Below are positions 1 to 19,989 of a stretch of 20,000 bases of DNA, piece after piece. The notes below the pieces were generated by a model that did no database searches, had not been told where the DNA came from, and was given only the letters and a program-made list of their open reading frames with translations. A program made the position numbers and the translations under genes. Numbering within the stretch: position 1 is the first letter of the stretch; every line of letters starts with the position of its first letter. The stretch lies in the IMG/VR virus record IMGVR_UViG_3300010365_001574. One strand, given 5' to 3'. The DNA is from an uncultured virus (IMG/VR IMGVR_UViG_3300010365_001574) (lineage: Duplodnaviria; Heunggongvirae; Uroviricota; Caudoviricetes).

Positions 1-134
1 AAATTTTCCTTACCATATTTTTTAATAGATTTCTTTATTAACTTACCACTACCAAAATAATAAGGATTATTATTTTTATCTTGTCCAATATAAATTTTGG
101 AATTTATCAAATTAGTAATTTTATAGACTATCAT
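1..134 (-). CDS. GIY-YIG (Seg-like) homing endonuclease, N-terminal part; runs off the left edge
   Basis: Manual translation from ATG at 134: MIVYKITNLINSKIYIGQDKNNNPYYFGSGKLIKKSIKKYGKENF. It contains VY-x10-YIG and the Y-x-GSG...I-KYG-x-ENF signature of T4 Seg-type GIY-YIG nucleases. Not in the ORF track. Confidence 0.9.
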   Translation of the reverse strand, partial: MIVYKITNLINSKIYIGQDKNNNPYYFGSGKLIKKSIKKYGKEN

Positions 135-172
135 AACATAATTATTTTATAGTATATATAAAATAATATGTT
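135..172 (-). promoter_or_regulatory. Hairpin abutting the GIY-YIG start codon and overlapping a TTTATATATA promoter-like motif
   Basis: Arms aacata-a-ttattttata (135-151) and tataaaataatatgtt (157-172): 16 bp with one bulge and a 5-nt loop, ending immediately before the ATG. Confidence 0.65.
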
Positions 173-217
173 CTATCTTTTTTATTTACTCCACTTTATA
201 ACAAAATTAGTTTCTTG

Positions 218-243
218 TTATATGAATAATGGTAGATTTGTTT
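218..243 (-). promoter_or_regulatory. Putative phage promoter, class AAAC-N17-TATAA
   Basis: Minus strand AAAC-aaatctaccattattca-TATAA in intergenic DNA; the same architecture occurs at six other sites in the window. Confidence 0.5.
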
Positions 244-262
244 AATCATGTAACATGATTAA
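242..262. repeat. Perfect 10-bp palindrome just after the 2H phosphoesterase stop codon
   Basis: ttaatcatgt-a-acatgattaa; possible operator or terminator-like hairpin. Confidence 0.5.
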
Positions 263-265
263 TTA

Positions 266-844
266 TTATTTATTAAACTCAACTATTTTTAATTCACTCA
301 ATGGTTTTCTTGGTTCATTAGAAATCAATTCATGTCTTTTACAACACTCTAAAATATATTTAGAATGTTCTATATAATCTTTTTTAATTTTCAAAATTGA
401 ATTATTATTCTCTTCAACACCCTCTGGGTATCTTTCTTCTGCTCTTCCTAATGTTAAGTGCATACCAAAAAATGGATCTCTACTTAAACCCATTATTTCT
501 CTAATACTTTCTGCTTCAGGACAATGAACTCTCAACCACCAGTGTTCACCACTTGAACATGGTTCAGTTTCAACATAGAAATCAATTTCTTTACCATCAA
601 ATAAATCAGTAAACTGGTTGAATGTTTTAGCATCCATTCTATCATTGATAAAGGTAATGTGAGTACCTCTCAAGTTTCTAACTAACTCAAGATTAAATCT
701 TTTTTTCAAAAACCAAGCATAGTATTTATCTAAATCACAGTTAGTTCGGATCATAGCAACTTTCTTCCAAGATGCTTGACTTGCATGCTTCTTGGTTTTG
801 TCCTCTGGACTGAAATCTAATATACCTCTTACTTTAAATACCAT
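266..844 (-). CDS. 2H phosphoesterase superfamily protein
   Basis: 192 aa with two H-x-T motifs about 67 aa apart (GTHITF and GMHLTLG), the defining 2H signature. Confidence 0.75.
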   Translation of the reverse strand: MVFKVRGILDFSPEDKTKKHASQASWKKVAMIRTNCDLDKYYAWFLKKRFNLELVRNLRGTHITFINDRMDAKTFNQFTDLFDGKEIDFYVETEPCSSGEHWWLRVHCPEAESIREIMGLSRDPFFGMHLTLGRAEERYPEGVEENNNSILKIKKDYIEHSKYILECCKRHELISNEPRKPLSELKIVEFNK

Positions 845-848
845 ACTG

Positions 849-856
849 CAAAGATA
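849..856 (-). promoter_or_regulatory. Bacteroidota-type housekeeping promoter -7 element (TAnnTTTG)
   Basis: Minus strand TATCTTTG-cagt-ATG directly before the 2H gene; no clear TTTG -33 element seen. Confidence 0.6.
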
Positions 857-887
857 ATAAAATTATATATAAAATAAAAATTAAATT

Positions 888-1040
888 ATGGATAAATCAC
901 AAAAAGAAAATGTTTCATTATTAAGAGAAAAGTTCCTTCTAAACTATTGTAAAAAGATGAATTGGAATCATAATGAACTTTCAATTAATCAAATGTTGAC
1001 CATAACCTCTCAAAAAGAGTATATTACTCCTAAACAATAA
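888..1040 (+). CDS. Small hypothetical protein (50 aa)
   Basis: MDKSQKENVSLLREKFLLNYCKKMNWNHNELSINQMLTITSQKEYITPKQ*; fills the intergenic gap and is preceded by TTATATATAAAAT and an A-rich leader. Not in the ORF track. Confidence 0.75.
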   Translation: MDKSQKENVSLLREKFLLNYCKKMNWNHNELSINQMLTITSQKEYITPKQ

Positions 1041-1060
1041 GTTTTTTATTAATATAAATA
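1032..1060 (+). promoter_or_regulatory. Putative promoter AAAC-N17-TATAA(ATA) for the glycosyltransferase cluster
   Basis: AAAC 1032-1035, TATAA 1053-1057; the -10 part extends to TATAAATA, the T4 late consensus. Confidence 0.55.
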
Positions 1061-1078
1061 AAAAATAATTAATTATGA

Positions 1079-1813
1079 ATGAATACACATACTTTTACCT
1101 TTGTAATAGGGTATAGACACACATTAGAAAAATTCAATAATCTAAAGAGAACTCTTGATTGGATTAATGGATTTGCAGGAGTTGATGTAATAATTGTTGA
1201 ACAAGATACACACTCAAAAATCTCACACTTACCTTTAAAAGCAAGACAAATTTTCCTAAAATCAAGTAAACCTTATAATAAAGCTTGGGGATTTAATGTT
1301 GCCACAAAATTATCAAAATCAAATGTAATAGTATTTTCTGATTTAGGAATAATTATGGATCCTAATCAATTTATCGAAGGACTTAAAGCAATAGAACAAT
1401 ATGATATGGTTAGTCCTTATAAAAAACAAATTGAACTTCAACAAAATGAATCAGGTTTACAACTACCAGATATTTTAAATATTGATAGATTTGGTAGAGA
1501 AAAATCAATATGTGAAAGCTTATGTATTTTCAGAAAAGATGCTATACAAAAAATAGGCGGCTGGTATGAAGAACTTATAGGAAATGGTGAAGATGAATTT
1601 TTATCAAATAAAGTAAAACAATTTCTAAATTGGACTGAGTTTGAGCAAAAAGGTTATCAATTGTTTTATAATAGAGAAGCTCCTAATATGGCTCTACAAC
1701 AAAGAAACTTACAATTACTTCAAACATTAAATAATCTATCTAAAGATGATTTAGTTAAATCAATAAATCTTAGTATACCAAAAAATTCAATGGTTAATAA
1801 ATATGACAACTAA
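1079..1813 (+). CDS. GT-A glycosyltransferase (GT2/GT7-like) with degenerate motifs
   Basis: VIIVEQ, PYNKAWGFNVA, VFSDLG (DxD incomplete), IGGWYEELIGNGEDE; clear paralog of the next ORF. Confidence 0.8.
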   Translation: MNTHTFTFVIGYRHTLEKFNNLKRTLDWINGFAGVDVIIVEQDTHSKISHLPLKARQIFLKSSKPYNKAWGFNVATKLSKSNVIVFSDLGIIMDPNQFIEGLKAIEQYDMVSPYKKQIELQQNESGLQLPDILNIDRFGREKSICESLCIFRKDAIQKIGGWYEELIGNGEDEFLSNKVKQFLNWTEFEQKGYQLFYNREAPNMALQQRNLQLLQTLNNLSKDDLVKSINLSIPKNSMVNKYDN

Positions 1814-2564
1814 TTTTACTTATATAATACCTTTTAAATATACTGATGATCGATTACTTACTTTAATTAAAGTATTAAAGAATATTAAAGAATCTAATAT
1901 AAATTGTGAAGTAATAGTTATTGAACAAGGTTTAGAACCTATTCTACCAACAAAAAATGTAATCACTGATGAGAATTACATTTTTATGAGTAATCCACTA
2001 CCATTTAATAAATCTTGGAGTCTAAATGTTGCCTGGAAATCTGCAACTACTGATACTATAGTATTTGGTGATGCTGATAATCTAATTGATACTAAACATA
2101 TATTATCTTCTATTGAAGAACTAAAAGATTATGATTTTGTTTCACCACATATCAGACTAGTTGACTTAGAACCTAATGAAAATAATTTAGATAATGATGA
2201 AATATTCAATATCAATAGACCTGGTAGAGGTGAGTTAGACCATCAAAAATTACCAATGTGTGGTGCAATGACTATTTTTACAAAAGAAGCTTTAGAAAGA
2301 ATAGGTGGTTGGCCAGAAGAGTTCTTTGGTTGGGGTGCAGAAGATGATGCAATGAGTATCAAAGTAAAACACTTCTTAAAATGGAAAGAAAATGATAATA
2401 ATTGTTATCATTTATATCATAACAGAGTTCAACCCGAACAACAATGGTATTATAGAAATCTACAGATATACAATAACTATCTAAATATAACTAAAGATAA
2501 ATTACAAGAATATATTGATTCTGTTAAACCATTTATTGGAGATAAAAATAGAAAATTAACATAA
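1803..2564 (+). CDS. GT-A glycosyltransferase (GT2 N-terminus with galactosyltransferase/GT7-like C-terminus)
   Basis: YIIPF, VIVIEQ, PFNKSWSLNVA, FGDAD (DxD), IGGWPEEFFGWGAEDD (GWGxEDD motif), YHLYH. Confidence 0.9.
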   Translation: MTTNFTYIIPFKYTDDRLLTLIKVLKNIKESNINCEVIVIEQGLEPILPTKNVITDENYIFMSNPLPFNKSWSLNVAWKSATTDTIVFGDADNLIDTKHILSSIEELKDYDFVSPHIRLVDLEPNENNLDNDEIFNINRPGRGELDHQKLPMCGAMTIFTKEALERIGGWPEEFFGWGAEDDAMSIKVKHFLKWKENDNNCYHLYHNRVQPEQQWYYRNLQIYNNYLNITKDKLQEYIDSVKPFIGDKNRKLT

Positions 2565-3241
2565 TGATAACTATACTTTGGTGTACTATTAGACCAACAC
2601 AATTTATGAATTTTCACCAGAAATGGTTAGAAAAAGCAGATAATAAAGAAAATATAAGAACTATTGTAGCAGTAAACTGGGAAGAGCATAAAGAGTTTCT
2701 TAAAGACTATCCAGTTGAAGTAGTTGTTGTAAATACTGATAAAATAGGAGTTTGTTATCCATCATATATTCTAAGTTCTACTTTAGAATGTGAAAATGAC
2801 TCAGATGTTGTAGTTTTTGCATCAGATGACTTTTTACCACCTGATAGTTGGGACACTTATCTTATAAATAAGTTTAAAGAACAAGATGGATGTTTATTTG
2901 TACCAGATGGTTACCAATTAGAAAACTCTTCTAATATGATAGATCCTTGTATAACAATACCTCTTATGAGTTATGGTTGTTTGAAAAAAATAAATAAAGT
3001 AATATATCATCCAGCATATAATCATATGTTCTCTGATTGTGAACTATTCTTAAATTGTAAAGAATTAGGATTAATAATAAATGGATATCATGATGGAGTT
3101 CAATTCTTACATGTTCATCACTCAGCTGGATTAAGACAACCTGACCAAGCAGACCAACAATATCATTTAAAATGGCAAGTTGACCAAGAAACTTGGAATA
3201 AAAGGAAATTACTTCCTTTAGAAGAAAGATTAAAAGTATAA
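2564..3241 (+). CDS. Putative GT-A glycosyltransferase
   Basis: N-terminal TIRP, VVVFASDDFLPP (DD motif), YHPAY-x-HMFSD-x-EL, late HxHH; translationally coupled by a TAATG overlap. Confidence 0.7.
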   Translation: MITILWCTIRPTQFMNFHQKWLEKADNKENIRTIVAVNWEEHKEFLKDYPVEVVVVNTDKIGVCYPSYILSSTLECENDSDVVVFASDDFLPPDSWDTYLINKFKEQDGCLFVPDGYQLENSSNMIDPCITIPLMSYGCLKKINKVIYHPAYNHMFSDCELFLNCKELGLIINGYHDGVQFLHVHHSAGLRQPDQADQQYHLKWQVDQETWNKRKLLPLEERLKV

Positions 3242-3996
3242 TGAAAACAAATATAGAAAAAATCTGTAACTATACAGAAGATACTAAAAATCCTTATCAA
3301 CCTACTATAGCTCTATCTTATATTGATATGGTAACAGAAGATGAAGATGCTCATCAAAGAGAAATAAAAAGACAAAATAGAGAATTGGCTATTGATATTA
3401 TTTTAGATGAGAAAGATGAAAGTGAATGGGAAAATAGAAATAATAATATTGTATTTGGTTTTGATTCAGGTTATACATCTACAATAAGTCCTAAAATATT
3501 TACAGTAAATACAATAGCAAAAAACTTTACTTCTTTTAAAGATTTAGAATATGATGTTTTTACTAAATTAGAAAGTTTAACTAAGAATAAACCTGTTAGT
3601 AACAATTCAATGGTAAATACCTTAGATATTAATATATCAAATATAAGTTCATCCTATGATTTTGAAGCATTACAAAGAAGAGTTGTGTCAAAAATTATGG
3701 CTTGTACAAATATTGTTGCAATGGAAAATAGAAAAGGACCAGCAAATACAATAATTGTAGGTATAAATGTTGCTAAGTATATAGAAACAAGAGATATGAA
3801 CATATCAAATATGTTTGTTGGTTTAGATATAGTAATAACACCTTATATTGATAAAGATAAGATAATAGTTATGAGAGTGGAAAACTCTATAGGAACTGGC
3901 CTCAATGTTATAGTAAAACCAAATGACAATAAGTATTATATGGTAGAAACACCACAATCTTGGGAAAAGACCATGAAATGGTTCTGGATAAAATAA
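3241..3996 (+). CDS. Protein resembling a truncated, degenerate gp23-type major capsid protein (C-terminal-half segment)
   Basis: LQRRVVSKIMACTNIVAMENRKGPANTIIVGINVAKYI...GLDIVITPYIDKDKIIVMR parallels the gp23 segment IARQTGRGEGNFIIASRNVVNVL...VYIDQY (recalled, not aligned computationally). Confidence 0.55.
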   Translation: MKTNIEKICNYTEDTKNPYQPTIALSYIDMVTEDEDAHQREIKRQNRELAIDIILDEKDESEWENRNNNIVFGFDSGYTSTISPKIFTVNTIAKNFTSFKDLEYDVFTKLESLTKNKPVSNNSMVNTLDINISNISSSYDFEALQRRVVSKIMACTNIVAMENRKGPANTIIVGINVAKYIETRDMNISNMFVGLDIVITPYIDKDKIIVMRVENSIGTGLNVIVKPNDNKYYMVETPQSWEKTMKWFWIK

Positions 3997-3998
3997 AT

Positions 3999-4021
3999 AA
4001 AACCACTCATTGAGTGGTTTT
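3999..4021. terminator. Bidirectional intrinsic terminator
   Basis: aaaaccactc-att-gagtggtttt between convergent genes, with A and T tracts on the two sides. Confidence 0.85.
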
Positions 4022-4558
4022 TTAGTTTCTTGATTGAACTCTTATTTTATCATACTTTAACATTAACTTATACATACTATCCCATTCTTCATTAGGATTC
4101 TCAACTAACTTTTCATTCCATTGGTTGTTATTGAAATATTCAACAATCATACCAACTCTAAAATCCTCTTTTTGTTTTGGTACCCAATATCTTTTTTCTT
4201 CAAAGAATGAAAATGACATTCCTTTGTAAATATATGAACTATCACAATTTTCATTATATTTACTCACTCCTAATATTTTCTCAGTTCCTGTATTAAATAT
4301 CTTTCTTGGTTTATTCTCACCTTTATATTTTATAATTGCAGATTGAACATTAAACTTATCAAGTAGAAATATAATATCAGTTCTCAATGAATCACTATCA
4401 ATAGTACCATATGCCAAAATTGAATCATTGAATACACCTGATTCATAATTTTTCATTTCTAATATTTGATAATCTCTTGAGTATAATACAGATAAAATAT
4501 CATCCAATTTATCAGATGATATTAATAAATATGATATTTGAGGATTTTCTAAATTCAT
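4022..4558 (-). CDS. Hypothetical protein (178 aa)
   Basis: Intact ORF with AATATATA 4 nt upstream of the ATG; ends at the terminator. Confidence 0.8.
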   Translation of the reverse strand: MNLENPQISYLLISSDKLDDILSVLYSRDYQILEMKNYESGVFNDSILAYGTIDSDSLRTDIIFLLDKFNVQSAIIKYKGENKPRKIFNTGTEKILGVSKYNENCDSSYIYKGMSFSFFEEKRYWVPKQKEDFRVGMIVEYFNNNQWNEKLVENPNEEWDSMYKLMLKYDKIRVQSRN

Positions 4559-4562
4559 AGAC

Positions 4563-4570
4563 TATATATT
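4563..4570 (-). promoter_or_regulatory. Putative phage promoter AATATATA-N4-ATG
   Basis: Minus strand tttAATATATAgtctATG. Confidence 0.6.
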
Positions 4571-4574
4571 AAAT

Positions 4575-4727
4575 TTATTTAGTAGTAACTCTAAATATCT
4601 CTAATAGTTTACCCATACCAATTTGTTTTATTTCTGCAAAATATTCAATTGCTAATTCCTTTGATGGAAAATTTCCTTTTTTAATAACTTCATCAGAAGT
4701 CTTTGTTTTTAGATAAAATGTTTTCAT
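4575..4727 (-). CDS. Small hypothetical protein (50 aa)
   Basis: MKTFYLKTKTSDEVIKKGNFPSKELAIEYFAEIKQIGMGKLLEIFRVTTK*; preceded by AATATATATA-gagt-ATG. Not in the ORF track. Confidence 0.75.
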   Translation of the reverse strand: MKTFYLKTKTSDEVIKKGNFPSKELAIEYFAEIKQIGMGKLLEIFRVTTK

Positions 4728-4731
4728 ACTC

Positions 4732-4741
4732 TATATATATT
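4732..4741 (-). promoter_or_regulatory. Putative phage promoter AATATATATA-N4-ATG
   Basis: Minus strand aaAATATATATAgagtATG. Confidence 0.55.
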
Positions 4742-4776
4742 TTTTATCAATCTTCTTTTTAGAGAGGTTGGTTATT

Positions 4777-4790
4777 TTTATATATAAATA
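4777..4790 (+). promoter_or_regulatory. Putative late-type promoter (TTTATATATAAATA) for the HNH gene
   Basis: Contains TATATA and the T4 late consensus TATAAATA (4783-4790), 14 nt before the ATG at 4805. Confidence 0.5.
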
Positions 4791-4804
4791 AAAGTAAAAG
4801 TTAT

Positions 4805-5515
4805 ATGAAAAATTGTTCAAAATGTAATATTGAAAAGGAATTAGAATTTTTTCCAAAGGATAAAACTAAAAAATGTGGTTATAGTAGTTGTTGTAAAGAT
4901 TGTAAGAAAAAGTACAGAGAAGATAATAAAGAAATGTTAAAAGAGACTTATAAAAATTACAGAGATAATAATAAAGAGAATATTAAAAATTATGTAATAA
5001 ATAATTCAGAAAAGATTAAAGAGTATCAAAAAGAATATAGAAAAAATAACAAAGAGACCAATTCAATTAATCAAAAAGAATGGTACTATAATAATATTGA
5101 CAAAGCAAGAAAAGTAAGAAGAGAATATCAAAAAAATAATAAAGAGAAAAGAAACAAAAAAATAAAGAAAAGAAGACTTGAAGATAATAAATTTAGATTA
5201 GTTTCTATAATAAGAACATTGATTTCCAATTCATTTATAAGAAATGGATTTAGTAAAAATTCTAAAACATTTCAAATATTGGGATGTTCATTTGAGGAAT
5301 TCAAATTACACTTAGAAAGTAAATTTGAACCTTGGATGAATTGGGAAAATCAAGGATTGTATAATGGTGATTTTAATTATGGATGGGACATTGATCACAT
5401 GATACCATCATCAACTGCAAAATGTAAAGATGATGTTATTATTTTAAATCACTTTACTAATTTACAACCATTATGTTCAAAAATAAATAGAGATATTAAG
5501 AGGGATAATTATTGA
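4805..5515 (+). CDS. Free-standing HNH-type homing endonuclease with N-terminal Zn finger
   Basis: CSKC...CKDC, a K/Y/N-rich helical linker, then WDIDHMIP...NHFTNLQPL...N beta-beta-alpha-Me core. Confidence 0.85.
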   Translation: MKNCSKCNIEKELEFFPKDKTKKCGYSSCCKDCKKKYREDNKEMLKETYKNYRDNNKENIKNYVINNSEKIKEYQKEYRKNNKETNSINQKEWYYNNIDKARKVRREYQKNNKEKRNKKIKKRRLEDNKFRLVSIIRTLISNSFIRNGFSKNSKTFQILGCSFEEFKLHLESKFEPWMNWENQGLYNGDFNYGWDIDHMIPSSTAKCKDDVIILNHFTNLQPLCSKINRDIKRDNY

Positions 5516-6734
5516 ATAACTCCTTTAACTTTTTGTTAAATATACTTTTGACAATTTCTCTATATTTCACAGGAAATACAATTGAATCATGTATTGTTAT
5601 TATTTTTATATCTGGATAAATATTAATTATAGTTTTTATTATATTATTGAATATCAAATTTGATTCCATTTTTTGCAAATCATATGCTAATATTTTATAA
5701 TTTGAAAACTCTTTTTTATACAATTTTATAAAATTATGTATAGTTGGAAAATTGCTTTCAAATAAAATGTCACATTTATTATTACTTCTATTCCTACCAA
5801 ATAGAACTTTATATGTCATCTTTTTAATTGTATTTTTATCAAATTTTGATTTACTCATCATATATTCATAATATCCACCACTTTCAACCAAATATGAAAA
5901 CAACTCAAACTCATTTTGGTCAACCCATTTTGTCCCACTATCTCTTATTATCTTTGACAGAAATAATGGTTGACTATTAGAAATATCCAATTCACAAGTT
6001 TCCTCACCATCAATCATTAGACAATTCTTTCTAATAAATGACTTCAATATTGTGTAATTTGTATGCATTCTTCCATAAGCATCAAAGTGATAAAAGATAT
6101 GTTTATTATTTATACATTCAACAGAATAAACATTTCTATTATAAATATCATAATCTTGATACTTCAATGAGTCTAAGAAAAATATTGCTCTATCAAACTC
6201 AATATTAACACTAAATAAGTCAGAAACTAACTTTTCTTTAACATCAATATCAATTAATGATTCTTTCTCACCAATAGAACTTCCAACCATTTCTACAAAC
6301 TTACCTTTATACTTTCTCAAAAGTACTTTGTCATAGTTCTTATATCTTTTAATTTTAGATTTAAAAATATCATCATCTAATGAATATATTCTTGATGTAA
6401 CACCTGTTTGATATTGTGTCATAAGTGCAATTATATTATTATCAATAAGATAATTTATATAATAGTTGTATAAGTAACCATACTTATCTTTTAACACAGT
6501 GGCATTAATTGCAAATCTGTTTTCTTTCTTAAAATAATACTTTAAAATTAGACTATGTATTATATCAATTAGATAATCTGTCTTTAGTTTTGTCTCTTTA
6601 TAATTTATAGTTTTTATATTCTCAATATGATATAAACATTCTGGTAAAAATTGAAGTGTAAAAGTTTTATCTTCTACTCTCTTAGATACTATTTGGCTTG
6701 ATATTTTATTAGTGATTTTGTTCTCAATATACAT
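5496..6734 (-). CDS. Minimal family-A DNA polymerase / single-subunit RNA polymerase-like protein
   Basis: DAYGRMH (DxxGR), ELDISNSQP (motif A), KKMTYKVLFG (motif B), LQKMES, ITIHDSI (motif C); 412 aa, with no exonuclease motifs seen. Confidence 0.75.
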   Translation of the reverse strand: MYIENKITNKISSQIVSKRVEDKTFTLQFLPECLYHIENIKTINYKETKLKTDYLIDIIHSLILKYYFKKENRFAINATVLKDKYGYLYNYYINYLIDNNIIALMTQYQTGVTSRIYSLDDDIFKSKIKRYKNYDKVLLRKYKGKFVEMVGSSIGEKESLIDIDVKEKLVSDLFSVNIEFDRAIFFLDSLKYQDYDIYNRNVYSVECINNKHIFYHFDAYGRMHTNYTILKSFIRKNCLMIDGEETCELDISNSQPLFLSKIIRDSGTKWVDQNEFELFSYLVESGGYYEYMMSKSKFDKNTIKKMTYKVLFGRNRSNNKCDILFESNFPTIHNFIKLYKKEFSNYKILAYDLQKMESNLIFNNIIKTIINIYPDIKIITIHDSIVFPVKYREIVKSIFNKKLKELFNNYPS

Positions 6735-6739
6735 AGTTT

Positions 6740-6765
6740 TTATATGAAAATTAAGCCATATGTTT
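6740..6765 (-). promoter_or_regulatory. Putative promoter AAAC-N17-TATAA for the polymerase-like gene
   Basis: Minus strand AAAC-atatggcttaattttca-TATAA-aaact-ATG. Confidence 0.55.
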
Positions 6766-6960
6766 CAAGATTTTTTCTATTTTTTTCTTTCTCATTTCTC
6801 TTCTCAATTCATCACTTAATTCTTTAACTAATTTATCTTCCACATCACTATTAATATACACATTTAAGTCTGTTGATAATTCAGTTGTCCACTCACTTCT
6901 AAGTGGTCTTGATTCTGACTTAACAATAACTTCTTTCATACTTATATTTATCTCATTCAT
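6751..6960 (-). CDS. 69-aa protein resembling the backbone-helix segment of a gp23-type major capsid protein
   Basis: INISMKEVIVKSESRPLRSEWTTELSTDLNVYINSDVEDKLVKELSDELRRE parallels T4 gp23 FRIDKQVIEAKSRQLKAAYSIELAQDLRAVHGMDADAELSGILATEIMLE (recalled); ends in REMRKKKIEKIL. Confidence 0.7.
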   Translation of the reverse strand: MNEINISMKEVIVKSESRPLRSEWTTELSTDLNVYINSDVEDKLVKELSDELRREMRKKKIEKILKHMA

Positions 6961-6985
6961 AAATTTTATTTATCTCATTCATAAA
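6945..6985. repeat. 19-bp direct repeat (period 22) duplicating the start of the 69-aa ORF
   Basis: tatttatctcattcataaa at 6945-6963 and 6967-6985. Confidence 0.85.
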
Positions 6986-6987
6986 AT

Positions 6988-7014
6988 TTATATCAAAAAT
7001 TAAATATATAGTTT
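6988..7014. promoter_or_regulatory. Overlapping divergent promoter-like motifs
   Basis: Minus strand AAAC-N18-TATAA (7014 to 6988) for the 69-aa ORF; plus strand AATATATA (7003-7010)-gttt-ATG for the GGCT gene. Confidence 0.55.
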
Positions 7015-7347
7015 ATGAGAGAATATTTATTTGTATATGGTCAGTTTAGAGATACTGCTAAAAAGTTATTACAGGATCCTATTTATTGTGGAAAAGCAAC
7101 AATTAATGGTAAAATATACAAAGTCAATGATTTTTATCCAGGGTTTGTTGATGGTAAAGGTAAAGTATTAGGTGATGTTTATTTAATCAATCCTGAATTG
7201 TTTCCAGTACTTGATGAGTTTGAAGGTGATGAGTATATAAGAACCAAAGTAAACACATCAAGTGATATTGAATGTTGGGTATATAAGTATATACATGATG
7301 TTAAAAAATTTGAAGAAGTTAAAGGTGGTGACTGGTGGCTTAGATAA
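7015..7347 (+). CDS. Gamma-glutamylcyclotransferase (GGCT/AIG2-like) family protein
   Basis: YLFVYG, FYPG, VLGDVY, LDEFEG-x-EY-x-R (catalytic Glu motif), CWVY. Confidence 0.9.
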   Translation: MREYLFVYGQFRDTAKKLLQDPIYCGKATINGKIYKVNDFYPGFVDGKGKVLGDVYLINPELFPVLDEFEGDEYIRTKVNTSSDIECWVYKYIHDVKKFEEVKGGDWWLR

Positions 7348-7376
7348 AAAAAACCTACTTATAAAGTAGGTTTTTT
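7348..7376. terminator. Bidirectional intrinsic terminator
   Basis: aaaaaacctactt-ata-aagtaggtttttt between convergent genes. Confidence 0.85.
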
Positions 7377-8693
7377 AGTTTGGTTTAATGGTTCAATTGG
7401 TAGTTTACCACCTTTTTCACCTTTTTTCTTTTTATTTTCAACTCCTTTTTCAAATTCTGAATAAACATCAGGATAAACTTGTCCTTCTGAGTCAGTATCA
7501 TACTTAATATCAAAGAAATCCTCAAAATCAAGTAATCCTGCTCTTGTCAATTCTATCTCCTGCATTTTACCCATATAATCATTAACATGATTATCAATTG
7601 CATCAACAAATACATTAAATAGTTTAACTGTATTCTCTGTAAATACTCCAATTGGTTTTTTCTTTCTTCTGTTAAATGAACCTAATATAACTTTGAAGAT
7701 ATATTCAAGTTTATCACTCTCATCTATGTATTCTTTTGTTAATTTATTGTTAATTAATTCTGTATTTATTTTGAACTTATCTTTATCAAAGAACTCAGGA
7801 ACTATAAAATCAAAGTCAAGTAAATCAGATTTAACTTCTGAAATATAAATATTAAATAATTTACATATCAAGTAAATATAAATCTCATCTTTCTTATCAC
7901 CTTTAAGTTTTACTTGTTCTAAATCAACTGACTGACAGAAATTAAGGAAGTTAAGTAATATCAAAGTGTATATCTCAACAAACTCAGTATCATTATTCTC
8001 ACTTAATCTTCTATATAATGGATTTAATAATTCAAATGAAGTATCATTTGATTTACTTCTAATTATTAACTTTTCAATATTTTTTTGAAATTCATCCTCC
8101 ATTAAAAATGAGTTTTGTAACATAGGATTCAATATCTTATAGAAGAAGAATGTAAATGACTTTTCTCCAAAGATATATTCTAAATCATCTTCACCAGTAT
8201 TGATAAAGTATTTAATAGCTTCAACCATTTTATCAGTAAGTTTTCCCTTGAATACAACTGGAATAACATCAACATCAAACAATCTAGCAAATTCTTCTAA
8301 TTCCTCTAATACAAATTCATACTTACCAGATTTATTAATAGATGTTAGAACTAATTTATTTTTAGGAACTCTATTATATTCAATATTTGCTGGTTGTTCA
8401 TCAGGAAAATATTCAAAACAAAAAGACCACTTTCTATTAAGTAAACTTTTTACTCTACCATCCAAATCATTAAAATAATTTATTGCAGGATTATAATAGT
8501 TCTGCATTGCTAAGTCAATCATATTAATAGGTTCTGCAGATAATGACTTTGGTTTTATTATAAACTCTTTACCATTCCAACTAACCCATATTTTTGAACC
8601 CTGTATATCCTCAAGAACAATAATCTCATTGTTAAATAATTCATTTAGTAATTCAGTGTCTTGATTATTGTTTAATTTTACTAAATTTGACAT
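7359..8693 (-). CDS. RNA ligase (Rnl2-like) nucleotidyltransferase-fold protein, apparently catalytically degenerate
   Basis: Motif order resembles ligases, but motif I reads EDIQGS (no Lys), followed by FCFEY, VIPVVFKG, IEKLIIR (motif IV normally EG) and FELLN (motif V normally K). Confidence 0.55.
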   Translation of the reverse strand: MSNLVKLNNNQDTELLNELFNNEIIVLEDIQGSKIWVSWNGKEFIIKPKSLSAEPINMIDLAMQNYYNPAINYFNDLDGRVKSLLNRKWSFCFEYFPDEQPANIEYNRVPKNKLVLTSINKSGKYEFVLEELEEFARLFDVDVIPVVFKGKLTDKMVEAIKYFINTGEDDLEYIFGEKSFTFFFYKILNPMLQNSFLMEDEFQKNIEKLIIRSKSNDTSFELLNPLYRRLSENNDTEFVEIYTLILLNFLNFCQSVDLEQVKLKGDKKDEIYIYLICKLFNIYISEVKSDLLDFDFIVPEFFDKDKFKINTELINNKLTKEYIDESDKLEYIFKVILGSFNRRKKKPIGVFTENTVKLFNVFVDAIDNHVNDYMGKMQEIELTRAGLLDFEDFFDIKYDTDSEGQVYPDVYSEFEKGVENKKKKGEKGGKLPIEPLNQTKKPTL

Positions 8694-9430
8694 TCTATAT
8701 TATCTTTTTTTATATCCCTATTTATTTTACTACAAAGAGGTTGTAAATTAGTATAGTGATTCAATTTAAGAACTTCATCCTCTGTTTTTGCAATTGATAT
8801 AGGAATTATATGGTCAATATCCCAACCATAGTTTAATTCACCATTATATAATCCATAATTTTCAAAAGTCATCCAATCTTCAAACTTAGACTCTAAATAT
8901 GATTTGAACTCTTCAAAGGAACATCCCAATATTTCTATGGTATTTGATTTTTTTCTAAATTTTCTTTCCACTATTGATCTTCTAATAGAAGATTTAATAT
9001 TTTCAGTTATTGCAAATAAAGGATCATTTATCCTCTTATTTTTGGACCAATTTCTTCTATATTCATTTACTAAATCTTTATTCTCTAAGTTCCAAATTTT
9101 AGCAGTCTCTATCTTACGTTCTTTATTTTCATAATACCATATTTTTGTTCTGTTTGATACACTTTCACTATTTTCAGAATACCAGCTTTTATAATTACTT
9201 CTTATAATTTCTTTATTTGTTTCATAGTAAACCTTTCTCTTATCTTTATTACTATCATTATACTTTTTTTGTATAATTTTTATTTTATCTTTATTATTTT
9301 CACTATACTCATATAGATATTTTTTCTTACATTCCTTACATTGGTTTATATGACCATCTTTACAACGACTACTTTTACCAAAAAAGGACAAATCTTTTAT
9401 AATTTTACAAACTATACATTTTTTACTCAT
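8681..9430 (-). CDS. Free-standing HNH-type homing endonuclease with N-terminal Zn finger (paralog of 4805-5515)
   Basis: CIVC...CKEC and WDIDHIIP...NHYTNLQPL; 60 of 78 C-terminal residues identical to the other copy by manual count. Confidence 0.85.
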   Translation of the reverse strand: MSKKCIVCKIIKDLSFFGKSSRCKDGHINQCKECKKKYLYEYSENNKDKIKIIQKKYNDSNKDKRKVYYETNKEIIRSNYKSWYSENSESVSNRTKIWYYENKERKIETAKIWNLENKDLVNEYRRNWSKNKRINDPLFAITENIKSSIRRSIVERKFRKKSNTIEILGCSFEEFKSYLESKFEDWMTFENYGLYNGELNYGWDIDHIIPISIAKTEDEVLKLNHYTNLQPLCSKINRDIKKDNIECQI

Positions 9431-10289: not shown

Positions 10290-13200
10290 ATGGATAAACA
10301 GTTATTAGATGGATTAGATAATTTATCAGAAGCTCTTGTTATGATTGCTGAGGCACTTGAGAAGAAAAATGGAAATAGTAATAGCACAACAACAAATGCT
10401 TTAGTAAGTGGTGACTTCACAACTCAGATTAAAGAAATCAATGTTAGTCTTAAATCAATTAAGAAAGACACTAAGAAGATTCTTGAAAGTCAACAAACTA
10501 TATTAGAAATGTCTAAGAAAAAAGACAAGAAAAGTAGTTTAATTGAAGATGTTGGTGGTGATCAAAAAGCAGAGAGCAATCTTAAAAAAGGAGTTTCAAC
10601 TATTCTATTAATTGCAGTTGGTGTTCTTGCTATAGGACTTGCCTTTAAACTAATTGGTAAAGTTGACTTCCTATCTGTTGTTTCTCTTTCATTAGCAATG
10701 GTTTTAGTATCTATTGCATTTGAAAAAATAGCTAAGTTAAAATTAGATATGAAAGAAGCATTCATGGCTTCTGCAGTAATGGTAATAATGTCTGTTGCAA
10801 TAACTATGTCTTCTTGGGTTTTAAGTTTAGTTGCACCACTTAGTTTTACACAACTATTAACAATTGTTTTAATTGCAGGAATGTTTGCAGTTTTATCAAA
10901 TTATTTAGAGAATGTATTTATTGCATCAATTTTATTTAAAAAGTTGAATGTTAACCCATTTCAACTAGTAATAGCACTAGTTAGTATTGCCACAGCAATT
11001 ACATTATCTTCTTGGGTATTAAAAATGGTAACTCCAATATCAATTGGTCAGGCAGTTACTGCTATATTAATTGCAGGAATGTTTTCTGTTATATCATTTG
11101 GAATAGGTGAAATGATTAGTGCATTAGGAAAATCAGGAATGGCTGAATTAGGTAAGTCTATTCTATTCTTACCTCTTATACTACCTGCAATTGCATTAGC
11201 AATTGCAATATCATCTTGGATATTGAAAATGGTAACTCCAATATCATTTCCACAAGCAATAACAGGTATTCTTATTGCAGGAATGTTTACTGTAATTGCA
11301 TATGGTATAGGTAAGTTAGTTGGTTCATTCAAAGACATGAAAGAGAGTGAAATTGCTGCAGCAGTAATTGGATTACCATTACTTCTCCCAGCAATGGCAC
11401 TAGCAATTGCAGTCTCTTCTTGGTTTCTTCAAATGGTTGTACCTATATCATTTGGACAAGCACTTACTGCAATATTAATTGCTGCGGTTTATGTTGTTCT
11501 ATCATATGGTATGGAAAAAATTGTCAAGAGTATTAGTAAAATGGATTGGAAAGATATTCCTAAAATTCCAGTATTCTTTACATTAATGGCATTGGCAATC
11601 TCTGCATCTGCTGTAATTTTTTCAAACTATTCAAAAGAAATTAATGCAGTAACATTTATGATGTTACTTAAAGTACTTATAATAGGTGCTGCAATGGGTA
11701 TAGTTATGGTTATTATTGGGGTTGCAATGAGAATGATAGGTAAATTATCAACAGAAGATGTTATAAAAGTTCCTATTATGTTTACTTTATTAGCAGTTGC
11801 AATAGCTCTTTCTGCTGCAATTTTCTATAATTTTAGAAAAGAAATTGAAGGAATATCATTCATGGCAATGTTTAAAATATTAGTTTTTAGTGTTTGTTTA
11901 GCTATATCAGTTGCAATAATGGCACTAGGTGTAATGATAGTAAATAAAATTGGTGGACCTAAAGATTATCTTATTGGTGGTATATCAATACTAATAATTG
12001 CAACAACAATAATGGCTGCATCATTGATATTAGGATTAGGTGATTATAGTGATGGCAAATATCCTGATTGGAAATGGTCTTTAGGGGTTGGATTATCATT
12101 AATTGCATTTGGTACAGCAGCAGTTATATTAGGAACAATAGCAATGAGTGGTATTGGTGCTCTTGCTATTTTAGCAGGTGCCGCTACTATTTTAGTAGTT
12201 GCAGCAACTATAGTAGCAACATCATTTATTTTAAGTAAAGGTAAGTATGATAAATATCCTACACTTGATTGGTCTTTAGGAGTAGGTCTAAGTATGACTG
12301 GTTTTGGTATGGCAATGGGTCTTCTTGGTACATTCATATTAGGTTCACTTGGATTAGGAATGGTTGCTCTAATGGCAGGAAAAGAAGCAGTTCTTATGAT
12401 TGCAGAAACAATAGTTGAATCTTCATTTATATTACAAAAAGGTAAATATTCTGGTGGACCAACCAAAAAATGGGCTGAAGGAATAGCATTGGCATTAGGA
12501 GCATTTGCACCAGTATATGTAATGTTGGCAACTAATAAAATAATGAGTTTATTTGGTGGAGGAGTTGGTCCTGATGATTTTGCACAAGCAATAAGAACTG
12601 TATCTCAAGGTATTGTAGATGCAGCAAATTACTTTGCAGGTGCAAAAGTGGCATTTTCAGGTGGACCAAGTAAAAAATGGGCCGAAGGTGTAGGTACTGC
12701 AATTGCAGCATTTGCACCTGTATATTCTGCATTAAGTAGTGGTGGTTTCTTTAGTACAAAAGTTACACCAGAAGATATGAAATCAGGAATTCTAACTATA
12801 TCAGATGGTATAATTGCTGCTGCATTAAAATTTGGTAATAATATTGCATTATTTGATATAACAAAGGTACCTTCAAAAACATGGGGGGAAAGTGTTGGGG
12901 CTGCTTTACAAGCATTTGCACCAATATTTACTTATATGAGTGAAAATAGTGGATGGTTTACATCAGGTAAAGATGCAGCTAGTGACATGGTATATGGTAT
13001 TAACTCTGTTGCACAAGCCATAATAACGGTTGCAAAGAGATTTGCATCAGTTAAAGGAAATATATGGGATTCTTATCCAAAAAAAGAATGGATTAATTCA
13101 ATTAAATTTACAATTACTTCTTTTACAGGAATTGTAAAATCTCTTGAAGATACTGATTGGGTAGAATTAGATTCAGTAAGTAGAGTAGCAAGAAAATTGG

Positions 13201-13826
13201 TTGAAACTGCTTCAATACTTTCTAAAGGAAAATTCAATCAAGTTATAGATCCAAACTTCATTAAAAGTCTTTCAAAAAATGTAATTGGATTTGCAGTATT
13301 GGCAAAAAAACTAAGTGATATTAATGAAGGAGATGGTTTACTAAAAACTGCATTTGGTCTAGATCCTGTGTCAAGAACTGCAAACTCCATGGTTAAATTA
13401 GCAAATGCGTATGACAAGATGGCAAATGCACTTAAAAAGTTTGGTGGTGCGTTAGCTTCTATTGATGGTCAGAAAGTAGATGTAATAAGAAGACTTACTG
13501 GTAATATGGCAGTATTGGCCGCAATGAATGAACAAGCCTTTAATTCTATGATGACCACACTTGAAAATAAAGGAAGTGTATTTACACAACTACTTGATGT
13601 AGATAAAACTAAAACTGGACCAGTAGTTGGTGAAGGTAAAGGTAAAAAAGGTGGAGCTATTGAGAAAGCAAAGCCTAAAGGTAAATATGGTGAAACACAC
13701 CAACAATTAGATATTATGATTGATTTACTTAATAATATAAATCATAATACTTCTTCTTTAGATGACTTTTTAGCAAAACAAGGATTTAAAGCAGATGCTG
13801 TTGTTGATTTAACTATGAAAAAATAA
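10290..13826 (+). CDS. Tail tape-measure-like protein (1178 aa)
   Basis: Coiled-coil N-terminus and a long A/G/I/L-rich hydrophobic region with about 68-aa repeats (aaaatggtaactccaatatca at 11022 and 11226). These are followed by about 69-aa GP-x-KKWAEG...AFAPVY repeats (12453, 12660). Confidence 0.75.
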   Translation: MDKQLLDGLDNLSEALVMIAEALEKKNGNSNSTTTNALVSGDFTTQIKEINVSLKSIKKDTKKILESQQTILEMSKKKDKKSSLIEDVGGDQKAESNLKKGVSTILLIAVGVLAIGLAFKLIGKVDFLSVVSLSLAMVLVSIAFEKIAKLKLDMKEAFMASAVMVIMSVAITMSSWVLSLVAPLSFTQLLTIVLIAGMFAVLSNYLENVFIASILFKKLNVNPFQLVIALVSIATAITLSSWVLKMVTPISIGQAVTAILIAGMFSVISFGIGEMISALGKSGMAELGKSILFLPLILPAIALAIAISSWILKMVTPISFPQAITGILIAGMFTVIAYGIGKLVGSFKDMKESEIAAAVIGLPLLLPAMALAIAVSSWFLQMVVPISFGQALTAILIAAVYVVLSYGMEKIVKSISKMDWKDIPKIPVFFTLMALAISASAVIFSNYSKEINAVTFMMLLKVLIIGAAMGIVMVIIGVAMRMIGKLSTEDVIKVPIMFTLLAVAIALSAAIFYNFRKEIEGISFMAMFKILVFSVCLAISVAIMALGVMIVNKIGGPKDYLIGGISILIIATTIMAASLILGLGDYSDGKYPDWKWSLGVGLSLIAFGTAAVILGTIAMSGIGALAILAGAATILVVAATIVATSFILSKGKYDKYPTLDWSLGVGLSMTGFGMAMGLLGTFILGSLGLGMVALMAGKEAVLMIAETIVESSFILQKGKYSGGPTKKWAEGIALALGAFAPVYVMLATNKIMSLFGGGVGPDDFAQAIRTVSQGIVDAANYFAGAKVAFSGGPSKKWAEGVGTAIAAFAPVYSALSSGGFFSTKVTPEDMKSGILTISDGIIAAALKFGNNIALFDITKVPSKTWGESVGAALQAFAPIFTYMSENSGWFTSGKDAASDMVYGINSVAQAIITVAKRFASVKGNIWDSYPKKEWINSIKFTITSFTGIVKSLEDTDWVELDSVSRVARKLVETASILSKGKFNQVIDPNFIKSLSKNVIGFAVLAKKLSDINEGDGLLKTAFGLDPVSRTANSMVKLANAYDKMANALKKFGGALASIDGQKVDVIRRLTGNMAVLAAMNEQAFNSMMTTLENKGSVFTQLLDVDKTKTGPVVGEGKGKKGGAIEKAKPKGKYGETHQQLDIMIDLLNNINHNTSSLDDFLAKQGFKADAVVDLTMKK

Positions 13827-15026: not shown

Positions 15027-15956
15027 ATGTTAATAGATAATAGAAGAAGAAATTTAGAAGAAAGAAAGAATAACTTTTTAAAAAAAGCCAATATTTTATA
15101 TGATTATAAATATGATTACTCAAATATTGATTATGTCAATAATGATACTAATATAGATATTCTATGTAAAACACATGGTGTATTTACACAATCTCCATCA
15201 AACCACTTAAAATATGGGTGTAATAAATGTAAACCCAAATCAGATAAATATTATTTGGATTTCATAAATAAATCCAATGAGATACACAATAATAAATATA
15301 CTTATATTAAAGAGTCTTTCACAAACATAAAATCTAAAGTTAGTATAATCTGTACTAAACATGGTAAATTTGAACAGATTGCATCATCACATAAATATGG
15401 TTCAAAATGTCCAAAGTGTGATATTGAAATTAGAGCTGACAATCAAAAACTTGATAAGAATTTAGCAATAAAAAAATTAATAGATGTACATGGTGATAGA
15501 TATGATTATTCAAATTTTGAATATATTGAATTTTCATCAATTATAAAAGTAATATGTAAAGAACATGGTCTTTTTGAACAAAGATATGATGTTCATCTAT
15601 CTGGATGTGGTTGTAAATCTTGTAATAATAGTTTAGGTGAAGATAAAATATCTAAATATTTAGACATTCATAAAATAAAATATAAAAGAGAATATAAATT
15701 TGAAGATTGTATAAATATTAAAAAGTTGAAATATGACTTCTACATAGAAGATATAAATACTTGTATAGAATTTGATGGAATACAACATTATAAACCTATA
15801 GAATATTTTGGTGGTTTAGAAAGATTTGAATATATGAAAAAATGTGATGATATTAAAAATTTATATTGTTTTGAAAATAAAATTAAACTAATAAGAATAT
15901 CTTATTTAGATGTTGATAAAATATATTCTATATTAGATAAACTTTTATTAAGATAA
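15027..15956 (+). CDS. Free-standing endonuclease: three Zn-ribbon (DUF723-like) repeats plus a C-terminal Vsr/PD-(D/E)XK-like nuclease domain
   Basis: Three repeats of Y-x-Y...I-x-C-x-x-HG-x-F-x-Q...H...C-x-x-C, then SLGE, YDFY, CIEFDGIQH, D-x-x-K and LIRISY. Confidence 0.85.
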   Translation: MLIDNRRRNLEERKNNFLKKANILYDYKYDYSNIDYVNNDTNIDILCKTHGVFTQSPSNHLKYGCNKCKPKSDKYYLDFINKSNEIHNNKYTYIKESFTNIKSKVSIICTKHGKFEQIASSHKYGSKCPKCDIEIRADNQKLDKNLAIKKLIDVHGDRYDYSNFEYIEFSSIIKVICKEHGLFEQRYDVHLSGCGCKSCNNSLGEDKISKYLDIHKIKYKREYKFEDCINIKKLKYDFYIEDINTCIEFDGIQHYKPIEYFGGLERFEYMKKCDDIKNLYCFENKIKLIRISYLDVDKIYSILDKLLLR

Positions 15957-16766: not shown

Positions 16767-16802
16767 AAAAAAACCCATCAAATGATGGGTTTTTTTATCT
16801 TA
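16761..16802. terminator. Bidirectional intrinsic terminator (20-bp perfect arms)
   Basis: taagataaaaaaacccatca-aa-tgatgggtttttttatctta between convergent genes. Confidence 0.9.
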
Positions 16803-19800: not shown

Positions 19801-19989
19801 AACTGGGTCAAATACACTAATTAAATTTTTAGATAAACAATAAACATAATTGTTTACTATATTATATTCCATTTTAATACTTTGTGTATTACCAGTCAGT
19901 TCTATTGTAGTTATTGGTAGTCCATAATATGAATCTATCACACCAACACTACTATCACCATATACATAAACACAATTTGATAATTCATA
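16795..19989 (-). CDS. Large virion structural protein (YVTN-like beta-propeller plus baseplate-wedge-like region), probably 5'-truncated
   Basis: Repeats such as VFDPVTNFVISTI, INNSNGDVYVS, YEPVNKSIYVY and YNPDRKSMW; IGSYKSIINAINFFGY; W...Y-x-x-GD-x-V-x-Y-x-G carbohydrate-binding-like repeats. The frame is open past the GTG at 19941 up to a stop at 19990-19992. Confidence 0.7.
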   Translation of the reverse strand, partial: YELSNCVYVYGDSSVGVIDSYYGLPITTIELTGNTQSIKMEYNIVNNYVYCLSKNLISVFDPVTNFVISTITLTNDAFDLVINNSNGDVYVSYDNSSDIHIFSYDNLTSSTTYSETISSSNGKMVFHEYEEDIYITSTTNTVHRINGVTRNAISTFTIPGLLPNIFYEPVNKSIYVYGTDVYIIDNGLLSISELPSSTSPDLIFNSLTGELNISDSSNNFTRISVTGSMIDYTDVTHHGYIGLSPYDGSIYLSATDNNIVIIDPLTNSYVFNVQTAITTKLTYNPDRKSMWFIQPSTNKVVEIEVKLNNTAVTTQVESISIEENTMYGSLHPDYVPRPDIWLKTRDYFRRPRENFNNDIQVKYYWKWLADNVSEFFMYDYSGKQLQLSENIYKGSPSYSYTGVTPLSPVVLNKTPNNDVTKIAYSEYQKTIFDKIEYTLSYIDDENDISTNVEPLQLFVGFQSQSEGALRSILQLYKQEDISFTISSSQSQYITMETLDIYGPDKRGQIKLNTNSDEVFTGRGLKPGQHIVIYAKDSSNKKDQYISHNNASMFIIREVYTRTIIVDFFDITNDIIETEATIINNHPKSGDITYLNFGIKVKDKEIGRFYTYGQTEEEDIRFKIELGNVGKLIDTNDVFIFKQYDILEGGIDWTFLNRKRKEMMMMKHLIYPYIGSYKSIINAINFFGYNDLQLNEYYKNVDTTSPEFTKLFKIEIPDIFDNSVEGWTENDFIKHTMPNDKFEGTNLFNLTYFITDKDGTNVLTYSLDEVIIKLQGLKYWLKKNIIPLTHKILDITGRVYLSSGNQIQHKVNDVRIIKINENMTPVSFKMNEVYLMPVNSGSTIYNCVLDFYSIIPGVGADKDPLGLVEPPKPYNGVSVVPPDYFNIRIRTYKTYKEWAPFKNYMIGDRVTYYGILYESVIDNNKVNSPRKYELVEPWKSGNTYELTSLTEYDSNIYVYSSSTATQSVINPYLDNNWKNITDWKPISWDPVQTISEYRNGDNLLPFNFTIDSNLDPFVVIEVTSDNGYGSVYRDKKSYEVRGLKDLTEPYQQIESIGPFVPIVLR

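Follow-up and report, generated by a model that had tools for sequence, protein, structure and literature searches.

The window, by which we mean the whole 20,000-nucleotide stretch of uncultured virus DNA analysed here, is AT-rich phage DNA with a G+C content of about 25%. On its minus strand, a small gene begins with an ATG at 6960 and ends in a stop codon at 6751-6753, and its product is homologous to one piece of the T4-type major capsid protein. The ORF list of the window contains no further ORF of at least 40 aa across this mini-gene. By our estimate, the chance of a 69-codon open frame at about 25% G+C is about 0.002, so that a fortuitous frame is unlikely. The features of the locus and its surroundings are the following:

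6751-6960, minus strand: capsid-fragment mini-gene, 69 aa, stop codon included
6895-6960, minus strand: codons 1-22, aligned with T4 gp23 residues 248-268, the strand before the helices
6811-6894, minus strand: codons 23-50, the acidic and most variable helical middle, aligned with T4 gp23 residues 269-296
6754-6810, minus strand: codons 51-69, the basic C-terminal tail, with the tag core R-x-x-K-I-x-x-I-L at 6766-6792
6947-6985, no strand assigned: 22-bp tandem duplication in the start region of the mini-gene, with two exact 17-mers (0 expected)
6988-7014, minus strand: AAAC-N18-TATAA promoter-like motif, 28 bases 5' of the mini-gene ATG
5496-6734, minus strand: downstream neighbour of 412 aa, family A polymerase-like (palm and fingers), with a winged-helix-like N-terminal part
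7359-8693, minus strand: upstream neighbour of 444 aa, RNA-ligase-like as a lead; its Atlas neighbours carry PF09414 RNA_ligase
7015-7347, plus strand: GGACT (gamma-glutamyl cyclotransferase-like) gene, PF06094 E 7.5e-20
3241-3996, plus strand: truncated capsid paralogue of 251 aa covering the A-domain region, in the same conserved block
4805-5515 (plus strand), 8681-9430 (minus strand) and 15027-15956 (plus strand): three HNH or endonuclease VII-like homing endonuclease genes

The start region of the mini-gene combines a promoter-like motif with a local duplication. The AAAC-N18-TATAA motif that an earlier note on this DNA had assigned to the gene is present at the position given above. The window holds three matches against 1.28 expected, a count that is not above chance, since 30 of 200 shuffles reach three as well. 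All three matches stand 21-28 bases upstream of an ORF start. The upstream copy of the 22-bp duplication provides a second ATG and a nine-codon upstream frame, the end of which overlaps the true start. This duplication is limited to records of the window phage; the related locus L008 has a single copy, and the contig of a relative is without the 22 bases at this site. Metatranscriptome contigs from three runs cover the 412-aa and 444-aa genes in part and leave 6751-6960 uncovered, and in one run of uncertain kind the contig of a relative spans the mini-gene region. No RNA feature emerged when the window was scanned with Rfam and for tRNAs.

The two flanking genes resemble nucleic-acid enzymes. 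No Pfam family matches the 412-aa protein, and a search of its profile against PDB sequences found nothing. It is 57-84% identical across the clade, and an Atlas neighbour bears the label 'family A palm domain'. Its structural model has a mean pLDDT of 58 and is confident in the C-terminal half only. The top Foldseek rows are Pol theta, apicoplast Pol, Pol I and T7 DNA polymerase, all at weak E-values (0.028-0.3), and the N-terminus retrieves MarR-type winged helices. Judged by this model, the protein looks like a minimal family A polymerase behind a winged-helix-like N-terminus. The 444-aa protein likewise gave no Pfam match. Between the 444-aa gene and the mini-gene, the GGACT gene occurs in the window and in loci L004, L006 and L009 only, and 12 other loci are without it. 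Like the HNH endonuclease genes of the window, it is an insertion specific to its lineage. The endonuclease genes at 4805-5515 and 8681-9430 are paralogues that share a zinc-ribbon start and an HNH end, and their insertion is recent, since most relatives do not have them.

The 251-aa ORF, one of a family of truncated capsid paralogues, has no Pfam match itself. It aligns with a protein of the related record G003 by BLASTP (E 4e-52), and that homologue matches Gp23 positions 184-305 at E 4.3e-6, which passes the Pfam cut-off. By hhalign, the 251-aa ORF matches the capsid protein of its own clade with a probability of 81% (E 1.2e-5). A tag-like stretch, R-x-x-x-I-D-x-I-L, lies near its N-terminus. 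Elsewhere in the window, a hairpin of 13 pairs with T-runs on both sides (7348-7376) separates the converging GGACT and 444-aa genes and resembles a two-way terminator. Three glycosyltransferase-like genes of the family 2 type stand in a row at 1079-3241 (plus strand). Two very large ORFs have no family match, one of 1178 aa at 10290-13826 (plus strand) and one of 1048 aa at 16795-19941 (minus strand). The former has a higher G+C content, up to 36%, and a weak relative in the near-complete related record G004 (26% identity over 488 aa).

The mini-gene is conserved well beyond this one phage. A virus record of 42.5 kb (G001; CheckV completeness 9%) is 99.99% identical to positions 1-7263 of the window, hence it represents the same phage, and it carries an identical mini-gene. 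Relatives with the same gene order include three IMG/VR records (385, 476 and 483 kb, with 95-98% completeness) and the 635-kb GenBank record LR745206.1, also from an uncultured phage. At the syntenic loci of these huge phages (385-635 kb), an intact ORF of 61-70 aa is found in 18 of 18 cases, corresponding to 12 distinct proteins with identities to the window mini-protein down to 33%. The conserved order runs 151-aa gene, 95-aa gene, 444-aa gene, mini-gene, 412-aa gene, 50-aa gene and 178-aa gene. In 15 of 16 related loci the 412-aa gene comes after the mini-gene, and the sixteenth contig stops there. On the other side, the 444-aa gene lies upstream in 13 of the 16, and in several loci its stop codon overlaps the ATG of the mini-gene by one base. 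In G004, the mini-gene is present and the ligase-like gene upstream of it is absent.

Database searches extend this family. A word-index search returned 31 close homologues of 47-72 aa, most of them exactly 69 aa long, with 52-83% identity; one lies on a 640-kb contig. An exhaustive profile search yielded 891 proteins at E<=1e-3. Among the best 150 of these, many are stand-alone proteins of 56-74 aa that align from residue 1 and each form their own 50%-identity cluster, and the remainder are full-length or truncated capsid proteins. Metagenomes thus contain dozens of stand-alone relatives of 56-74 aa. When three family members were compared by tblastn with cultured and GenBank phages, only full-length capsid genes were recovered, apart from the mini-gene of LR745206.1, which is syntenic. 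The count of similar fragments in relatives that had been suggested as a check therefore revealed a large and diverse stand-alone family. Some database homologues show peculiarities of their own. P0009 and P0018 look frameshifted at the A-rich tail. P0038 and P0056 (120-125 aa, metagenomic) have the capsid helix segment followed by a stretch like the N-terminal motif of T4-type capsid proteins, in an order opposite to that of the full capsid protein and with the tag absent. P0053 (164 aa) contains two copies of the capsid helix segment. The match to P0082, a low-complexity repeat protein of 3048 aa with 14 matched stretches, was rejected as false.

The mini-gene is a selected gene and not a decaying relic, as follows from the 18 of 18 intact loci together with the large, diverse family.

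Likeness to the T4-type major capsid protein is supported at several levels. The Pfam profile PF07068 (Gp23) matches the mini-protein at E 8.9e-7 and 29.1 bits, above the curated cut-off of 24.4, and residues 1-65 correspond to profile positions 131-195 of 376. The PHROG family phrog_138, 'major head protein', matches it at E 1.1e-7. A profile built from 32 family members finds solved T4 gp23 chains at E 1.9e-7, with family positions 2-59 aligned to residues 248-305 (of 521) in chain 6uzc_a. The single mini-protein sequence searched against the PDB gave no significant match (E 0.83). T4 numbering was transferred through the profile alignment, so that fragment position p equals gp23 residue p+246. 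With the family alignment, AlphaFold2 predicts disorder in residues 1-22 and one helix from 23 to 68 (mean pLDDT 76). Only about 17% of the Gp23 profile is present, and the A-domain, N-arm, insertion domain and P-loop are missing. Since the profile match is confined to positions 131-195 and the model consists of a helix and a disordered arm, the HK97-type fold is incomplete, and the protein is classed as a fragment homologue instead of a capsid protein. For the same reason it cannot form a shell or a capsomer.

Conservation is uneven along this segment. Codons 1-22 are conserved, R18 and R21 are invariant, and the mean share of the majority residue in codons 1-28 is 0.81. The middle has a majority share of 0.67, and residues 27-51 carry a median net charge of -5.5; D39 is conserved in at least 90% of the family. 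By alignment, the copied segment (T4 248-305) comprises a strand and the short acidic helix of the P-domain, and it extends into the first part of the spine helix. According to PMC9546572, the T4 head-length mutations A268V, A275T, D285V and D287V/N lie near a short, negatively charged P-domain helix, which is close to the quasi-threefold axes and has charge interactions with neighbouring capsomers. In that paper, the spine helix of gp23 is the site of the gp31-bypass changes G292S/V306I/V307I. In fragment numbering, gp23 sites 268, 275, 285, 287 and 292 become positions 22, 29, 39, 41 and 46. PMC3014915 locates the Gol region, the trigger of Lit, in the first quarter of gp23.

Against this background, the description given in the earlier note can be refined. 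Its gp23 pattern stands up to the profile comparison, and so does its statement that the peptide cannot build a shell. The protein is indeed a stand-alone gp23 fragment; the term backbone helix is too narrow, given that the fragment covers a strand, the P-domain helix and the beginning of the spine instead of the spine alone. Both the helix fragment and its basic end were seen, and the shared nature of that end as well as the sister mini-genes described below were missed. A trigger of the Lit type, which the earlier note had brought in as a parallel, does not fit the position of Gol given in PMC3014915, as the mini-protein corresponds to 248-305.

The phage possesses a capsid gene of its own, from which the mini-gene is remote in both position and sequence. 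This capsid gene, seen in G001, is full-length (554 aa; PF07068 E 2.5e-29), adjoins a scaffold-like gene and is separated from the mini-gene by about 35 kb. Foreign T4-type capsid proteins from metagenomes receive 50-57 bits from the family HMM (8 of 8), whereas own-clade capsid proteins reach only 9.6-10.7 bits (4 of 4). Alignment to the full-length capsid gene of this genome, another check proposed at the outset, gave nothing significant: BLASTP of the mini-protein against the phage's own capsid protein found no homologous match, and hhalign assigned a probability of 1.7%, though it picked the equivalent place. Across the clade, that equivalent segment of the own capsid protein hardly varies. 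Recent duplication of the own capsid gene was rejected as an origin of the mini-gene on the grounds of these scores.

The last third of the mini-protein belongs to a different context. Its helical C-terminus had been described as basic, and residues 52-69 do have a median net charge of +6. R57, K59, K60 and I64 are conserved in at least 90% of the family. Residues 57-65 fit the pattern R-x-x-K-[IV]-x-x-[ILM]-[FLY] within about 12 residues of the end, and 39 of 40 family sequences have a tail motif. In the window, an HMM of the tail matches the mini-gene only (E 5.1e-7). In G004, by comparison, 19 of 524 genes carry the strict tag no more than 12 residues from the C-terminus, where the gene set is a crude one of 524 non-overlapping ORFs. 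Residue shuffles of G004 averaged 0.1 and never exceeded 2. No tag was found near N-termini or in reversed sequences of G004, and 24 occur anywhere in its proteins. The bearers have a median size of 92 aa, and most are without capsid likeness. The same phage, in record G001, has at least one further bearer, a 58-aa ORF.

Because the tag codons differ synonymously among bearers, it is the peptide that is conserved and not a DNA word. An embedded late promoter or other DNA element was rejected as an explanation of the tail for this reason, no fixed DNA word being present. The tail is thus a basic amphipathic C-terminal tag, which sits on a few per cent of the mostly small proteins of related huge phages. 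A similarity of the tail to sliding-clamp-binding peptides was considered and dropped; searches of G004 with PF09116 and PF02916 found no gp45-type clamp. Across G004 (pieces L037-L056), many proteins of 75-170 aa end in ...R-N/D-x-K-I-E-Q-I-L-K, with examples at 233792-234464, 368374-368667 and 371504-371797.

The mini-gene has sisters. Each of four large relatives encodes one full-length capsid protein and several small Gp23-matching frames that correspond to other parts of the profile. The tagged mini-genes among them, by position in the Gp23 profile, are these:

154-194: two tagged mini-genes with the second half of the helix, E 8.6e-7 and 3.2e-7
305-354: tagged mini-gene with the C-terminal block, E 3.5e-8
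303-376: tagged mini-gene with the C-terminal block, E 3.4e-5
308-356: tagged mini-gene with the C-terminal block, E 2.2e-4
222-259: tagged mini-gene with an A-domain piece, E 0.01 (phmmer against the own capsid protein, 0.0029)

G004 has a tandem of three tagged mini-ORFs, which opens with the A-domain piece. Next comes one like the head maturation protease (phrog_207, E 4.9e-4) and then one like the end of the T4 portal (Portal_T4, E 0.0034); these last two are weak leads. Another tagged ORF matches the phage's own protease-like protein weakly (E 0.0028). Tagged mini-genes with other gp23 pieces adjoin quite different genes from those around the mini-gene of the window. Candidate G004 mini-ORFs that might derive from terminase, polymerase B, helicase or tail sheath were discarded, as no matching profile appeared at E<=1. 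A 139-aa ORF of G004 at 190610-191029 (L046:16910-17329) matches the Gp23 N-terminal motif at positions 26-48, weakly (E 0.033); its tail end is rich in lysine and arginine, and it may be a further capsid-fragment gene.

The mini-gene also evolves in an unusual manner. Nei-Gojobori dN/dS, a measure that the earlier note had asked for, is 0.49-0.87 over six pairs, which is below 1 and rests on small counts (5-9 synonymous changes per pair), against 0.06-0.26 for the larger neighbour genes; the 50-aa neighbour offers too few changes to judge. Pooled pN reaches 0.205 in codons 23-50 compared with about 0.075 for the two ends. Most of the variation falls within residues 29-50, and residues 1-28 as well as the tail are conserved. 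Synonymous divergence is low in these conserved ends (pS 0.07-0.10) relative to the neighbours (0.3-0.5), which may reflect recent recombination or a constraint that acts on the DNA sequence and not on the protein. When the window is compared with L009, identity is 99% for the 444-aa gene and 96% for the GGACT gene, whereas it is only 64% for the mini-gene, which is the most variable gene of the conserved block. Fast change and sharply differing alleles between near-identical flanks fit a gene engaged in conflict or mimicry.

Our preferred reading, to which we assign a probability of roughly 45%, is that the tagged mini-protein would be a molecular mimic of a contact segment conserved in capsids and would act on a non-self partner. 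Its starting points are the observed homology, selection, synteny, tag enrichment and sister mini-genes, from which we infer binding, a target and a role for the tag. The front two thirds are a copy of one piece of the canonical T4-type major capsid protein, and the last third is the tag. The capsid-like part would occupy the site at which a partner receives that segment of a T4-type capsid protein, and the tag would tie the mini-protein to a common reader, be it a place, a hub or a carrier. A non-self partner appears likeliest because foreign capsid proteins are much more alike to the mini-protein than the own one and because its evolution is conflict-like. As partners, head assembly of co-infecting T4-type phages ranks slightly ahead of a host sensor of the T4-type capsid protein.

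Several points temper this proposal. The dN/dS values rest on few changes and lie below 1, and the low pS at the two ends is odd. The fixed slot between RNA-ligase-like and polymerase-like genes, away from the head genes, would fit a role in nucleic-acid metabolism just as well. Given that many bearers have no capsid likeness, the tagged class need not concern capsids, and the likeness to portal and protease is weak (E 5e-4 to 3e-3). Moreover, a 40-residue peptide might neither fold nor bind outside a full capsid protein. A wider form of the mimic reading would see a kit of tagged mini-proteins directed against the T4-type head assembly of rivals or against host sensors, sparing the phage's own diverged head proteins. 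Each member would reproduce a single conserved stretch of a head protein of the T4 type (in several cases from the capsid protein, and probably from the portal and prohead protease too), and the common tag would deliver or gather them. We consider this wider form quite unlikely.

Other explanations have to be weighed against the mimic reading. If the mini-protein tuned the phage's own head, a free inter-capsomer contact segment would adjust capsomer angles or shell size, and the tag would perhaps carry it into the prohead of a very large capsid; small size-redirecting proteins of satellites offer a comparable mode of action on capsids. The copied segment spans the cluster of T4 head-length mutations, genomes of 385-635 kb call for very large heads, several other tagged mini-genes copy head-module proteins, and a truncated capsid paralogue is part of the same conserved block. 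These arguments meet the family profile, which gives about 10 bits on own-clade capsid proteins versus 50-57 on foreign ones. They also meet a mismatch in tempo, in that the own capsid segment hardly varies at all and the mini-gene varies more than any other gene of its block, and the distance of about 35 kb from the head module. Modulation of the own head, one of the functions that the earlier note had envisaged, is weakened by the far greater likeness to foreign capsid proteins, and we regard it as unlikely. The alternative that the capsid-derived helix has been reused outside capsids, for instance as an adaptor or accessory subunit of the flanking ligase-like and polymerase-like enzymes, draws on the constant company of these two genes (15/16 and 13/16 loci, often with overlapping codons), on their resemblance to nucleic-acid enzymes and on the absence of capsid likeness from most tag bearers in G004. 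A mere helix would not be expected to keep the gp23 motif residues in a family with less than 50% identity, sister tagged gp23 pieces have quite different neighbours, and the G004 mini-gene does without the ligase-like gene upstream. We therefore hold that such reuse is not the probable explanation, at a level of doubt similar to that for the own-head reading.

A functionless relic of a capsid gene, perhaps carried by homing endonucleases, is very improbable. The three HNH or endonuclease VII-like genes in the window, a dN/dS that is high for a phage gene and the few database homologues that look frameshifted would speak for it. Yet the frame is intact at all 18 syntenic loci despite identities that fall to 33%, both ends are conserved, the tag is kept and dN/dS stays below 1; an unselected frame in DNA of 25% G+C would soon gain stop codons. 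Neutral decay, the possibility that the earlier note had set against its own idea, is contradicted by these data. Carriage by homing endonucleases was rejected in particular, as most relatives with the mini-gene are without endonuclease genes.

Known systems offer partial parallels to the tagged mimic. Capsid-size redirecting proteins of satellites, such as SaPI CpmB and P4 Sid, are small and act on capsids, and they are not derived from capsid proteins. By analogy, the mini-protein shares with them a small helical build and possibly an action on the capsid lattice through a short C-terminal helix. It differs in that it is phage-borne and capsid-derived, whereas CpmB and Sid are satellite-encoded, and in that capsid binding is putative here. 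Anti-defence mimics and decoys of phages, for example DNA-mimic proteins, copy a recognised surface. The mini-protein would differ from these in being cut out of a class of structural protein that the phage itself uses and in bearing a shared tag. T4 gp23 and the vertex protein gp24 (PF07068; PDB 5vf3, 6uzc and 7vs5) belong to the family from which the fragment stems: homologous to gp23 248-305, it retains about 17% of the profile, adds a C-terminal tag and has its gene at a great distance from those of the head. Gol, as described in PMC3014915, is likewise a short linear piece of gp23 that is active by itself; it lies in the first quarter of gp23 and has no separate gene, in contrast to a mini-gene that corresponds to 248-305. 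Within the accessible portions of open-access papers and preprints, the literature on mimics describes no structural-protein cut-out mimic and no shared-tag mimic, and stand-alone capsid-fragment genes or the tag are not described either (including PMC7824862).

The family stands even if the mimic idea fails, with dozens of 50%-identity clusters of proteins of 56-74 aa, and the tag is a statistically strong feature of these genomes. Since the mini-proteins match the capsid profile in Pfam, annotation pipelines could mislabel them as 'major capsid protein'. If the mimic reading is true, these huge phages would have found a new viral use for their own parts list, in which selected and tagged cut-outs of structural proteins serve as mimics. 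Such a use would make three propositions testable: that the inter-capsomer contact segment of T4-type phages can be targeted in trans; that a reader exists for a tag at the C-terminus of a few per cent of the proteins, in which case phages would have a signal for protein sorting; and that huge phages deploy protein decoys against other phages or host sensors.
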